NCBI RefSeq assembly: GCF_022846255.1
Contig: NZ_AP025682.1
DNA: 64,000 nt
Origin: Escherichia coli
Lineage (GTDB): Bacteria; Pseudomonadota; Gammaproteobacteria; Enterobacterales; Enterobacteriaceae
Strand: one strand, 5' to 3'
This document shows positions 31,201 to 40,200 of this stretch, one piece after another (the stretch's first letter is position 1; every line of letters begins with the position of its first letter). The position numbers were made by a program.

Positions 31201-34200
31201 GAGTGGTAATGCCTAAACTTGTCACTTGGATGAACAACCAGCGGGTAGGCGAGTTAACGAAGTTAGCCAATGGCGCGCACACCTTTAAGTATGCACCGGA
31301 GTGGTTAGCCAGCCGTTATGCCAGACCGTTGTCACTTTCGCTGCCATTGCAGAGGGGGAATATCACCTCTGATGCCGTATTTAACTTCTTCGATAACCTG
31401 TTACCCGATAGCCCGATTGTACGTGATCGGATCGTTAAACGTTATCATGCTAAATCCAGACAACCGTTTGATTTATTGTCAGAAATAGGGCGAGACAGCG
31501 TTGGTGCCGTAACGTTATTACCCGAAAATGAAACCATAACGCGCCCGATAATGGCATGGGAACAGCTCACTGAAGCCAGGCTTGAAGAAGTATTAACGGC
31601 TTATAAAGCAGATATCCCTCTGGGCATGATTAGAGAAGAAAATGACTTTCGCATCTCGGTTGCTGGCGCGCAGGAGAAGACAGCGCTGCTCAGAATAGGC
31701 AATGACTGGTGCATTCCGAAAGGAATAACGCCGACGACGCACATCATTAAATTACCGATTGGCGAAATCAGGCAGCCCAATGCGACGCTCGATCTCAGCC
31801 AAAGCGTTGATAATGAGTATTACTGTCTGCTGCTGGCGAAAGAACTTGGGTTGAATGTGCCGGACGCAGAAATCATTAAAGCGGGAAATGTGCGCGCGTT
31901 AGCGGTCGAACGTTTTGACAGGCGTTGGAATGCTGAGCGAACGGTTTTACTTCGCTTGCCACAGGAGGATATGTGTCAGACATTCGGTTTATATTCATCG
32001 GTGAAATATGAATCAGATGGAGGCCCAGGCATCGCGCGGATCATGGCTTTTTTGATGGGGTCCTGCGAGGCGCTGAAAGATCGCTATGATTTTATGAAGT
32101 TTCAGGTGTTCCAGTGGTTGATTGGCGCAACGGATGGCCATGCAAAAAACTTCTCCGTATTTATTCAGGCTGGCGGCAGTTATCGACTCACGCCATTTTA
32201 CGACATCATTTCAGCATTTCCGGTATTGGGTGGCGCGGAAATACACATCAGCGATCTCAAACTGGCAATGGGGCTTAATGCATCCAAAGGCAAAAAAACG
32301 GCAATCGATAAAATTTATCCGCGACATTTTCTGGCGACAGCAAAGGTGCTGAAATTTCCGCAAGTGCAGATGCATGAAATCCTGAGTGACTTTGCCAGAA
32401 TGATTCCGGCAGCACTGGATAACGTGAAGACTTCATTACCGACAGATTTTCCGGAGAACGTGGTGACGGCAGTTGAAACCAATGTGTTGAGGTTGCACCG
32501 TCGGTTAAGCCGAGAATACGGTATTAAGTAAGATATGGGGTGTGGCCGTTGTTAATGAGCAGGACAATCATGACCGCCAACGGCTGGATTCTCCCTTGGT
32601 TTATGTTGGTGCGCATAATGTATATTATGTTAAATTGAATTTGAGTGATGCGAAGCGATTTTCCAGTCGTCGTTATTACTTCAGGGTTCCAGAACATAAA
32701 GCCTCTCCTCTTTCATAATTGGCCTGTGCATACCGGATATAGGCTGGCTGGTATGCAGGTTTGCCGTTTGCCGCATCTTCCCTGCGTTGATGAGTCAGGC
32801 TGGCAAACCGCGTGCAAATGAACACCCCCTCTTTCCATCAACATTTCAGACAGCTTGCGGGAATGAGTCCACTCCGGTATCGGAAATGGCTAAGCCTCAA
32901 TGAAGCCAGGCGACTGATGCTGAATGAACATTACGATGTCACCACTGCAGCCTATGCTGTCGGTTACGAAAGCTTATCCCATTTCAGTCGGGAATATTCG
33001 CGGATGTTTGGAGAGTCACCTAAGAGAGATATTACCAGGTTAAGAAAGTCTGTCGGTCAGCTTTAATAAACCCTACACTTATCTGTTTAGAGCAATTCCG
33101 TGTTAGTTACACCAGGCAAACATTAACTATGGCTAATGATTTATAGCCATATAAACCATTGGTCGCTCTTGACCTTTCCTGACACTTCCCTTGTTCGCAA
33201 TAATATTCTGTTTAGTCACGGTTTATAAATAACATGCATAATGAAATCGTCATGTTATTTAGCGACATAAAATGTCTTTGCAAATACTCTCTACAACAAG
33301 TGCTGCAATAAACTTGTTGTGATTAGGTGTCCTTGTAATTTAAAGATATTATCGTTCTTCGTGAAATGTAATAACCCTGGAAACTATATTCTCAGGGCAA
33401 CTACCAATTAAGAATGATTCTTGTTTTATAAGCAATAACAGAATGACTTAATTGTTAACTCTCTTTATTCAGCTACTTAAATATAAATTTTGGAGAATTA
33501 TGAAACTCAAACATGTCGGTATGATTGTCGTTTCTGTATTGGCGATGTCGTCTGCTGCGGTAAGCGCAGCCGAGGGTGATGAATCAGTAACGACCACTGT
33601 TAATGGCGGTGTTATTCATTTTAAAGGTGAAGTGGTAAATGCCGCTTGTGCGATTGATTCAGAATCAATGAACCAAACGGTTGAGCTGGGTCAGGTCCGT
33701 TCTTCTCGTCTGGCTAAAGCGGGTGACCTCAGCTCCGCCGTTGGCTTCAATATCAAGCTGAATGATTGTGATACCAATGTTTCCAGTAATGCAGCTGTTG
33801 CATTCCTGGGTACTACTGTCACCAGTAATGACGATACATTAGCGCTGCAGAGTTTAGCGGCAGGCTCTGCCCAAAATGTTGGTATTCAAATTTTGGACCG
33901 TACGGGGGAGGTATTAATACTTGATGGTGCCACTTTTAGCGCTAAAACTGACTTGATTGATGGCACGAATATATTGCCGTTCCAGGCTCGATATATTGCT
34001 CTCGGGCAGTCAGTAGCTGGTACTGCAAACGCAGATGCGACCTTCAAAGTTCAATATCTATAATTCAATCTTAAGGTGGCTATACGTCATCTGAAATTGA
34101 AACAGGGTGTGTGTGGCATGGCTACGCACACCCGAGCAATATACCTATGTTCATCTCATTTTTAATGAGGAATGGTTTTTATTTGGGAGCACTATGAAAA

Positions 34201-37200: not shown

Positions 37201-40200
37201 TCTTAATTATCGTGGAGCTTACGGTAATACGAATGTCGGTTACAGTCGGAGTGGTGACAGCAGCCAGATTTATTACGGAATGAGTGGTGGGATTATTGCT
37301 CATGCTGATGGCATCACCTTTGGACAGCCGCTGGGCGACACAATGGTTCTGGTTAAGGCTCCTGGCGCTGATAATGTCAAAATAGAGAACCAGACCGGAA
37401 TTCATACCGACTGGCGTGGCTATGCCATATTACCATTTGCGACAGAATATAGAGAAAATCGTGTCGCTCTTAACGCGAATTCCCTTGCAGATAATGTTGA
37501 ACTGGATGAAACCGTAGTCACTGTCATCCCAACTCACGGTGCTATTGCCAGAGCAACATTTAATGCACAAATCGGCGGGAAAGTATTAATGACGTTGAAG
37601 TACGGTAATAAAAGCGTTCCATTCGGTGCAATTGTCACTCACGGAGAGAATAAAAATGGCAGCATTGTCGCGGAAAATGGTCAGGTTTATCTGACTGGAC
37701 TTCCACAGTCAGGGAAATTACAGGTTTCATGGGGCAATGATAAAAACTCAAACTGTATTGTCGATTACAAGCTTCCTGTAGTCTCTCCTGGAACCTTGCT
37801 GAACCAGCAGACAGCAATCTGTCGCTAAGGAACAATAGATTATGAAATACAATAACATTATTTTCCTCGGTTTATGTCTGGGGTTAACCACCTATTCTGC
37901 TTTATCCGCAGATAGTGTTATTAAAATTAGCGGGCGCGTCCTCGATTATGGCTGCACAGTCTCATCGGATTCGCTTAATTTTACCGTAGATCTCCAAAAA
38001 AACAGTGCCAGACAATTTCCAACGACCGGTAGCACAAGTCCAGTCGTCCCTTTTCAGATTACATTAAGTGAATGCAGCAAAGGGACAACGGGAGTTCGGG
38101 TTGCATTTAACGGTATTGAGGATGCAGAAAATAATACTCTGTTGAAACTAGATGAAGGAAGCAATACGGCCTCCGGTTTGGGTATAGAAATACTGGACGG
38201 AAATATGCGTCCGGTGAAATTGAATGACCTTCATGCTGGGATGCAGTGGATCCCATTGGTACCAGAACAGAACAATATTTTGCCTTACTCCGCTCGTTTG
38301 AAGTCAACTCAGAAGTCCGTCAATCCAGGACTGGTGAGCGCTTCGGCAACCTTTACCCTTGAATTTAAATAATCAGAGTCAGATATGAAAAGACTTCACA
38401 AGAGGTTCCTGTTAGCTACGTTTTGCACATTATTCACAGCAACTCTCCAGGCCGCCGATGTCACTATCACTGTTAATGGTCGGGTAGTCGCTAAACCATG
38501 CACTATTCAAACCAAAGAAGCTAACGTTAATCTCGGGGATCTTTATACACGCAATCTGCAACAACCTGGTTCTGCATCTGGCTGGCACAATATTACTTTG
38601 TCATTAACCGATTGTCCGATTGAAACAAGTGCAGTGACGGCAATCGTGACAGGTTCAACTGACAATACGGGTTATTACAAAAATGAAGGTACTGCCGAAA
38701 ATATTCAGATAGAGCTAAGGGATGACCAGGATGCGACGTTAAAAAATGGCGATAGCAAAACGGTTATTGTTGATGAGATCACTCGTAATGCACAGTTTCC
38801 ACTTAAGGCAAGAGCTATCACGGTGAATGGAAACGCAAGCCAGGGTACGATCGAGGCGCTAATCAATGTGATCTATACCTGGCAATAACATCAATTTGAT
38901 TTTATTTTCCTCCTTTTTAAATCAATTTTTTAACCTTAGGATATATCATGGGTAAAACATTCAGTATAAAGGTCCTGTTCGGTATTTATCTTCTATTAAT
39001 TGCAGGCAAAGTTTTTGCCTTCAGTTGTAATGTCGATGGCGGGTCAAGTATTGGAGCAGGTACAACCTCTGTTTATGTTAATCTCGATCCTGTAATACAA
39101 CCGGGCCAGAATCTGGTTGTAGACTTGTCTCAGCATATAAGTTGCTGGAATGATTACGGCGGCTGGTACGACACTGATCATATAAACCTGGTACAAGGAT
39201 CAGCTTTCGCAGGCTCCCTACAGTCATATAAAGGATCACTGTACTGGAATAATGTGACCTACCCTTTCCCGTTGACGACAAATACCAACGTATTGGATAT
39301 TGGTGATAAGACACCGATGCCATTACCGTTAAAACTCTATATTACCCCAGTCGGAGCGGCTGGTGGAGTTGTCATAAAAGCAGGGGAAGTTATTGCCCGT
39401 ATTCATATGTATAAAATTGCCACGTTAGGAAGCGGAAATCCGCGTAATTTTACGTGGAATATTATTTCAAATAACAGTGTTGTTATGCCAACAGGCGGTT
39501 GCACCGTTGATAGTCGTAATGTCACCGTGAATCTCCCGGACTTTCCTGGAAGCGCAGAAATACCCCTTGGTGTATATTGCTCTAGCGAACAAAAGCTCTC
39601 ATTTTATCTTTCGGGTGCCACCACTGACAGTGCCCGACAAGTGTTTGCTAACACAGCACCAGATGCAACAAAAGCATCGGGCGTGGGTGTCTCTCTGATG
39701 CGTAATGGAAAAACACTGGCAACAGGAGAAAATGTCTCCCTGGGGACAGTAAATAAAAGCAAAGTACCTCTGGGTTTAAGCGCAACCTATGGACAAACAG
39801 GAAACAAGGTTGCAGCCGGAGCCGTCCAGTCAGTCATTGGTGTCACTTTTATCTATGAATAATTGTGATTTTGACATTAGTCTATGCGCTCCATTCACGA
39901 AAATTGCGCGGATAATTATTTTGTGAAGGCTATTATCCTACACTTGTAAGAAAATCCGCGCACAATTGAAGCCAGAGTCTTATTTTTTATATTGAGAATT
40001 ATGTTAATTTAAACCCTATGAGAGATGATGCTTAACTTATCGTATTTATACTACTCTATTATTTAACGATAATAGAGTAAAAATAGTAAGAGAGTAGTCC
40101 CCTACTCTTATATATCCATGTTGACGATAAACCCTATGTATATACTGTGCATCATCGCTATTACAAATCCTAATAATTCATTTCCACACAGGATAAGCAG

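Follow-up and report, generated by a model that had tools for sequence, protein, structure and literature searches.

A complete F9 (Fml, Yde) chaperone-usher pilus operon between hipBA and ydeP in an Escherichia coli genome

Gene content of the hipBA-ydeP locus

A stretch of 64,000 nucleotides of Escherichia coli DNA (contig NZ_AP025682.1 of assembly GCF_022846255.1), hereafter the window, carries six co-oriented open reading frames (ORFs) on its plus strand between hipBA (hipB at 30925, hipA ending at 32531) and ydeP (40201-42480), and neither the ORF scan nor re-translation found an internal stop in any of them (Table 1). They encode a major pilin, a periplasmic chaperone, an outer-membrane usher, two adaptor pilins, and a tip adhesin, and we identify the region, with a probability of about 95%, as the complete F9 (Fml, Yde) operon for a chaperone-usher pilus of E. 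coli, paralogous to the structural genes of type 1 fim. An earlier note on this DNA, made from the sequence alone, had described six co-oriented, uninterrupted genes including an 883-residue usher, and re-translation bears this out, as does the finding that each of the six proteins has the exact length of its orthologue annotated by the Prokaryotic Genome Annotation Pipeline (PGAP) in strains GF130 and SCU-301, with identities of 97.7 to 100%. The gene order from hipBA to ydeP is the same in K-12 and SCU-301, and in the window hipBA and yneL lie to the left of the fimbrial genes and ydeP to their right.

Two of the translation starts call for comment. The mechanical ORF call for fmlA begins at a TTG at 33452, and the 187 residues given here are counted from the ATG at 33500, which has a GGAG Shine-Dalgarno sequence, a length that matches WP_000768280 and WP_001296758. 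For the chaperone, an in-frame ATG at 34416 would give a protein of 239 residues, while the PGAP choice is 34425; a GGAGA motif lies 9 nucleotides before 34425 and 0 nucleotides before 34416. The exact 883-residue usher protein recurs in assembly GCA_005387665.1, and 8.6 kb of the window is 100% identical to an assembled contig from run DRR322657, which shows the sequence to be natural DNA.

Table 1. Features of the F9 locus in window coordinates
Feature	Position	Strand	Remarks
yneL remnant, AraC-family C-terminal helix-turn-helix fragment (pseudogene)	32812-33066	+	Left border of locus
AT-rich regulatory region and 5' leader of F9 operon	33067-33499	+	32.3% G+C; 95% mean column identity, 9 strains
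Palindrome 1, TATGGCTA-N8-TAGCCATA	33128-33151		About -121 to -98 from transcription start
F9 promoter: -35 TAGTCA (33213-33218), 18-bp spacer, -10 CATAAT (33237-33242)	33213-33242	+	Promoter scan and match to CFT073 promoter
11-bp perfect inverted repeat, TAAATAACATG-N14-CATGTTATTTA	33226-33261		Brackets -10 and transcription start; absent from earlier note
Inferred transcription start, G	33249	+	251 nt upstream of fmlA ATG, 7 nt after -10; mapped in CFT073
Palindrome 2, ACAACAAGT-N10-ACTTGTTGT	33293-33320	+	+45 to +72, within transcribed leader
Stretch absent from K-12 MG1655	33322-36601 (3,280 bp)		Two BLAST segments meeting at K-12 position 1590079
fmlA / f9 major pilin, 187 aa, signal peptide	33500-34063	+	NCBIfam 'FimA' equivalog, 172 bits vs cut-off 140; Pfam Fimbrial
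G+C-rich hairpin, GGGUGUGUGUGGC-AUG-GCUACGCACACCC	34105-34133	+	41 nt after fmlA stop
Periplasmic chaperone, 236 aa	34425-35135	+	FimC best NCBIfam match; Pfam PapD_N and PapD_C
Outer-membrane usher, 883 aa	35177-37828	+	NCBIfam usher models, 983 and 850 bits; Pfam PapC_N, Usher, PapC_C
FimF-like adaptor pilin, ydeS orthologue, 176 aa	37842-38372	+	NCBIfam FimF equivalog, 237 bits vs cut-off 200
FimG-like adaptor pilin, ydeR orthologue, 167 aa	38385-38888	+	NCBIfam FimG equivalog, 256 bits vs cut-off 220
FmlH tip adhesin, ydeQ orthologue, 304 aa	38948-39862	+	24-aa signal peptide, lectin domain, pilin domain

Identity of the operon

Over residues 25-184 the adhesin shows 100% identity to the lectin domain of FmlH as crystallised in PDB entry 6AOW and ten further entries, and the galactoside-contact residues F1, Y46, D53, K132, N140, and R142, whose roles in the FmlH pocket were described by Kalas et al. 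2018 (PMC5866590), are all present. The full-length protein is 100% identical to YdeQ of GF130 and aligns over its whole length to FimH (E = 3e-80), and the Pfam assignment precomputed for an identical protein is FimH_man-bind. A structural prediction of this lectin domain, which had been proposed as a check, has been overtaken by the published record, as the structure of the identical domain is solved (6AOW) and its ligand has been reported.

The remaining five proteins fit the same architecture. The three pilins pass the FimA, FimF, and FimG equivalog cut-offs and have hydrophobic, signal-like N-termini. The chaperone gives full-length matches to the FimC, BcfB, and LpfB models and carries both PapD-type domains (PF00345 and PF02753, on an identical protein); its FimC score of 256 bits lies below the equivalog cut-off of 327, and we therefore regard it as a paralogue of FimC. 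The usher matches its models end to end (residues 11-883 on profile positions 6-877), and the domains precomputed for an identical protein are PF13954, PF00577, and PF13953.

If the label given automatically to the first gene, "type 1 fimbrial major subunit FimA", were taken at face value, the region would be the type 1 (fim) operon itself, and PGAP indeed names the first gene fimA in many genomes, the pilins pass the type 1 equivalog models, and the adhesin aligns with FimH from end to end. However, the locus is the one between hipBA and ydeP and not the fim locus, it holds no fimB, fimE, or fimI gene and no invertible element, both the chaperone and the usher fall below the FimC and FimD cut-offs, and the lectin domain is identical to that of the galactoside-binding FmlH rather than the mannose-binding FimH. 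We consider a type 1 identity to be already refuted and to have practically no chance of being correct. Because the lectin domain is identical to that of FmlH, the galactoside residues are in place, and the NCBIfam and Pfam assignments agree, the operon is F9/Fml/Yde and not type 1 fim despite its "fimA" label. This assignment had been made in the earlier note and is upheld by the family models, by the position of the locus, and by the identity of the lectin domain to crystallised FmlH; no evidence that contradicts it was found.

The likeness to the described F9/Fml/Yde systems (c1931-c1936 of CFT073, fml of UTI89, and F9 of enterohaemorrhagic E. coli [EHEC] O157:H7) is close to complete, extending to the same hipBA-ydeP locus, the same six genes in the same order, an identical FmlH lectin domain, the same promoter hexamers (one base of the -35 element aside) and leader length, and the same K-12 remnant (ydeQRST). 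All features that define the F9/Fml operon and can be judged from sequence are present. The differences are allelic only, namely a -35 element of TAGTCA in the window as opposed to TAGTCG and a rarer 5' allele. With type 1 fimAICDFGH the operon shares a gamma-1-type chaperone-usher architecture, FimA-, FimC-, FimD-, FimF-, FimG-, and FimH-like proteins in the same relative order, and a two-domain adhesin with a FimH-like fold. In contrast to type 1 fim, it is without the fimB/fimE recombinases, the fimS switch, and fimI, its adhesin binds galactosides and not mannose (PMC5866590), and F9 is under the control of H-NS and low temperature rather than of phase inversion (PMC3966885).

Prevalence and allelic state

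Most E. coli carry the operon in its intact state, which is not peculiar to this strain. Among 5,426 complete E. coli genomes, in which the figures are BLAST coverage and not counts of intact frames, 5,356 match some part of the region and 3,586 (66%) match at least 80% of it, while the 5' part (upstream region, fmlA, and spacer) is matched over at least 80% of its length in 3,337 (61.5%). When 60 records were sampled at even spacing from the ranking, 16 matched query positions 1-255 only, which puts the share of matching genomes with a K-12-type junction at about a quarter. The coverage figures agree with the prevalence given by Wurpel et al. 2014 (PMC3966885), who reported an intact operon in 60% of 42 genomes and a disrupted one in all genome-sequenced strains of phylogroup A, detected the three screened f9 genes by PCR in 61% of the E. 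coli reference collection (ECOR) and in 80% of uropathogenic (UPEC) isolates, and placed the f9 locus beside hipBA and ydeP with a variable 5' border.

At the level of DNA, the operon is 97 to 99.3% identical to that of other strains, and 120 records reach at least 99% identity over its whole length. Only 5 of the 5,118 records that match the 5' part (33067-34430) reach that level, with most at about 96%, so the 5' part is a rarer allele than the remainder of the operon; the FmlA protein itself differs from the common allele by only one or two residues. The flanks (8001-33000 and 39863-64000) have full-length identities of about 98.0 to 98.2% to the best of the complete genomes; 99% is attained by only 5 records on the left flank and by none on the right, yet exact matches exist in a few draft or read-derived assemblies that are public (DRR322657 and GCA_005387665.1). 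The source seems to belong to an under-represented lineage, or the region to be strongly mosaic.

The K-12 remnant and the deletion behind it

According to the earlier note, K-12 retains only ydeQ, ydeR, ydeS, and a truncated usher gene, ydeT, at this locus, and the MG1655 annotation agrees, listing these genes, with a ydeT of 382 residues, and a yneL pseudogene beside hipA. Whether K-12 carries the same intact genes after all was looked at directly: BLAST of the window against MG1655 returns two segments, 32857-33321 and 36602-43000, both of which end at K-12 position 1590079, and MG1655 has no equivalent of the stretch between them. Lost with this stretch are fmlA and the chaperone gene, most of the leader, and the first 1,425 bp of the usher gene; what the deletion leaves is the F9 promoter with 72 nucleotides of leader, fused to the usher fragment ydeT. 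Its left breakpoint (33321/33322) lies directly after palindrome 2, its right breakpoint is at 36601/36602, and the junction shares a single base pair, a G. What remains in K-12 is close in sequence to the window, with YdeT aligning to the C-terminal part of the usher at 97.6% identity and YdeS, YdeR, and YdeQ being 97.7%, 98.2%, and 97.0% identical to the FimF-like pilin, the FimG-like pilin, and the adhesin, respectively. Every sampled genome of the K-12 type has the same junction, with a match to query positions 1-255 only, and this common end-point suggests a single ancestral deletion.

A separate loss was seen in E. coli LI60C3 (NZ_CP136900.1), where the sequence of the locus breaks off about 13 nucleotides past the fmlA hairpin and runs on into yddA. 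This deletion differs from the K-12 type and is much larger, since the rest of the operon and the downstream genes as far as yddA are gone.

Promoter and regulatory region

The region upstream of the major subunit gene had been called very AT-rich, and its 433 bp indeed have a G+C content of 32.3% compared with 47.1% for the window as a whole. Within it, the predicted promoter corresponds to the one mapped by 5'-RACE (the rapid amplification of 5' cDNA ends) in CFT073, which has a -35 element TAGTCG, an 18-bp spacer, a -10 element CATAAT, and a start G at -251 (PMC3966885); TAGTCG is also the -35 element in sampled B2 strains, as opposed to TAGTCA here. In CFT073, H-NS binds a 251-bp fragment of the f9 promoter region and an hns mutant is derepressed, H-NS represses f9 at 37 °C, wild-type expression is weak, and F9 pili are found on wild-type cells at 20 °C (PMC3966885). 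The tests of H-NS dependence and temperature control that the earlier note proposed have therefore already been answered in that strain.

Other modes of control known from fimbrial operons found no support in the window. Phase variation of the pap type by Dam and Lrp requires two GATC sites, and there is none in 32532-33499. A fim-type invertible promoter switch is likewise rejected, as no inverted-repeat pair with more than 34 nucleotides between its arms was found in 32900-33560 and no recombinase ORF between hipA and fmlA. An RNA thermometer in the 5' leader was considered as well and set aside, because the fold of the leader as a whole has a z-score of -2.2 and its minimum free energy and centroid structures disagree, which is too weak for a structured leader.

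The yneL fragment at the left border was considered as the relic of a dedicated fimbrial regulator, and this too was rejected. The fragment has only C-terminal AraC-family matches, to RhaS-, AndR-, RclR-, and GbdR-like and not to Rns/AggR-like members, and we found no link to fimbriae. The corresponding stretch in GF130, 14EC020, and SCU-301 carries the PGAP annotation "incomplete, missing N-terminus", yneL is a pseudogene in K-12, and a search for a full-length close homologue in a database of 5.8 billion proteins returned none, with all homologues being fragments of at most 146 residues. In B2 strains, other sequence replaces the yneL DNA, and homology to the window begins around 33100.

Inverted repeats around the promoter

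Short palindromes in the upstream region had been put forward as possible regulator sites. Both exist, although their positions needed correction (33128-33151 and not 33124-33147 for palindrome 1; 33293-33320 and not 33294-33321 for palindrome 2), and their proposed function holds up less well. Judged against dinucleotide shuffles of the 433-bp upstream region, that region is rich in inverted repeats (8 seeds of 8 bp compared with 0.55 expected); shuffling yields a perfect inverted repeat of 8 bp in 35% of cases and one of 9 bp in 10%, so that neither palindrome is significant alone. Only the window and 14EC020 have palindrome 1 in perfect form, the other seven of the nine strains having TATAGCTA or CATAGCTA with one or two mismatches. 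Given that it is perfect in only two of nine strains and that an 8-bp repeat is so frequent in shuffled sequence, palindrome 1 is probably an allele-specific product of chance, even though it overlaps H-NS motifs predicted at -111 and -103 (PMC3966885). Palindrome 2 lies downstream of the mapped start and hence would be a leader-RNA hairpin or a downstream DNA site, not an upstream operator. Its RNA folds into a hairpin of 10 pairs at -11.2 kcal/mol (z = -3.8), and the palindrome keeps 8 to 9 bp in eight of the nine strains.

The 11-bp perfect inverted repeat is the stronger candidate for a regulatory site, as a repeat of this length occurs in 0.5% of shuffles, and it is unchanged in eight of the nine strains. 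Its right arm overlaps H-NS motifs predicted at +8 and +14 (PMC3966885), and the repeat itself is not among the promoter features described in the parts consulted of that 2014 promoter paper. High conservation extends over the entire promoter, so that the repeat is not distinguished by conservation alone, and we regard it as a candidate operator or H-NS nucleation site. An exact scan for TAAATAACATG-N14-CATGTTATTTA in 100,044 species-representative genomes, a search that misses variants, returned three matches, in an Erysipelotrichales genome, Nanosynbacter, and Mucilaginibacter, and none in the Enterobacteriaceae. We raise only tentatively, as something we hold to be doubtful, the idea that the locus has undescribed cis-elements beyond generic H-NS silencing, with the 11-bp repeat serving as the operator of a specific repressor or as a nucleation site for H-NS/StpA and the hairpin after fmlA as a processing or stability element by which pilin stoichiometry would be set. 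If this is so, the 11-bp repeat could explain why F9 combines, unusually, expression at 20 °C with silence at 37 °C.

The hairpin after fmlA

A spacer of 361 bp separates fmlA from the chaperone gene, compared with 12 to 59 bp for the other spacers of the operon, and its first part holds a G+C-rich hairpin that had been noted before at coordinates one nucleotide off (34105-34133 is correct, not 34104-34132). The stem has 13 pairs (11 Watson-Crick and two G-U wobbles) and closes on a 3-nucleotide loop, with a folding energy of -23.8 kcal/mol and a z-score of -5.0; the spacer after fmlA (352 nucleotides) folds with a z-score of -4.7. The suggestion that it acts as an intra-operon attenuator remains plausible for a conserved hairpin, but not in the form of a canonical intrinsic (Rho-independent) terminator: a stem is present, the U-tract is lacking, with GAGCAAUAUACC in its place, and the terminator scan makes no call there. 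The same scan called no convincing intrinsic terminator after the adhesin gene on the plus strand up to ydeP. With gathering thresholds, no part of the window matched any Rfam family, which places both hairpin and leader outside the described RNA families.

Over 11 strains, the 29 nucleotides of the hairpin vary at two positions, whereas the next 30 nucleotides vary at about nine; the variants are a basal G-to-U change in E20 and the replacement of a U-G wobble by a U-A pair in LI60C3. The near-invariance of the hairpin amid a spacer part that is 80 to 95% identical in most genomes, compared with about 97% over the entire operon, suggests that the hairpin is under selection. It is also possible, if less probable in our view, that the hairpin has no function and is a relic of DNA that formerly separated fmlA from the chaperone gene, such as a lost fimI-like gene or a mobile repeat, conserved only through the relatedness of the strains. 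The absence of a U-tract, terminator call, and Rfam match would be in line with this, as would the unusual length of the spacer and the minimal covariation support that two variable positions in 11 strains afford. Against this stand the near-invariance of the hairpin next to variable sequence, a stability far above that of shuffled controls, and the improved pairing that results from its one internal change. We therefore prefer a functional hairpin under selection.

Stable stem-loops follow the major pilin genes in the pap and fim operons, where they precede genes whose products are needed in far smaller amounts. The F9 hairpin likewise lies directly downstream of the major subunit gene and differs from those of pap and fim in having no U-tract and in being followed by a further 290 nucleotides of spacer. 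By this analogy, the hairpin most likely raises the ratio of fmlA to downstream mRNA. We know of no transcript mapping for the F9 operon.

Proposed expression and assembly of F9 pili

Our results and the published work on F9 lead us to propose the following course of events. A sigma-70 promoter in AT-rich DNA would start transcription about 251 nucleotides upstream of fmlA; as described in the literature, H-NS would silence the F9 DNA at 37 °C and the operon would be expressed at low temperature, and any role of the inverted repeats is one that we infer. The hairpin after fmlA may lift the proportion of major pilin by shielding the 3' end of an fmlA transcript that has been processed or terminated, through a partial stop to read-through, or through both. 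All subunits would be exported by Sec and each would be capped by the chaperone through donor-strand complementation, and the usher would then polymerise them in the order of FmlH adhesin, FimG-like adaptor, FimF-like adaptor, and a rod in which FmlA is repeated many times. The lectin domain of FmlH would bind the terminal galactosides reported for it, namely Gal-beta1-3-GalNAc (the Thomsen-Friedenreich [TF] antigen), GalNAc, and Gal-beta1-3-GlcNAc, and in mice FmlH plays a part in chronic urinary tract infection (PMC5866590).

Some observations count against this picture of a working operon. Intact frames alone are no proof that this strain makes pili; the promoter was mapped in CFT073, which belongs to another lineage and differs by one base in the -35 element (TAGTCG compared with TAGTCA); and the role proposed for the hairpin draws on the analogy with pap and fim, on conservation, and on one wobble-to-Watson-Crick change, with too little covariation to prove an RNA structure. 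The operon might accordingly be intact in sequence and yet cryptic in this strain, permanently silenced by H-NS, devoid of a dedicated activator, and decaying as in phylogroup A. The AT-rich upstream DNA and the repression of f9 at 37 °C and its weak wild-type expression (PMC3966885) would fit such a state, as would the adjoining yneL, an AraC-family gene that is a fragment here and in every homologue found, the degraded neighbours in the window (an autotransporter remnant and the absence of yneK), and the loss of part of the operon from about a third of E. coli genomes. Nevertheless, all six frames are intact and their proteins are 97.7 to 100% identical to those of strains that have diverged by about 2% in DNA, a pattern that fits purifying selection, and F9 pili are made by wild-type CFT073 at 20 °C (PMC3966885) while FmlH has a role in chronic urinary tract infection of mice (PMC5866590). 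A cryptic operon is thus, in our judgement, an unlikely explanation, and we favour an F9 operon that is expressed under H-NS and temperature control.

The intact F9/Fml operon is real, was correctly interpreted, and is already known, and it carries little weight as a discovery: published work covers the structure and ligands of its lectin domain, its part in chronic urinary tract infection, its promoter, its control by H-NS and by temperature, its prevalence, and its disruption in K-12 and phylogroup A. F9/Fml pili are an established E. coli adhesin with a part in urinary tract infection and in the colonisation of calves by EHEC, and they are a drug and vaccine target. What the present analysis adds is annotation, in the form of exact boundaries for the K-12 deletion, the placement of the published promoter and start in window coordinates, and the recognition of palindrome 1 as a probable allele-specific accident. 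The two conserved small elements, the inverted repeat that brackets the promoter and the hairpin after fmlA, may be of use to studies of F9 regulation.

Neighbouring degraded loci

Two further loci in the window are reduced relative to SCU-301. At about 10691-10701 the window lacks yneK, a gene found between ydeA and ptrR in SCU-301, with about 1 kb missing. Beside the intact fimbrial operon, between lsrK and hipB (28570-30922), an autotransporter of the ECSE_1600 family has been reduced to a remnant that has lost about 2.67 kb including its 5' end and, in addition, two internal stretches of about 450 bp; the gene, 5.4 kb long, is intact in SCU-301 and corresponds to the yneO pseudogene of K-12.

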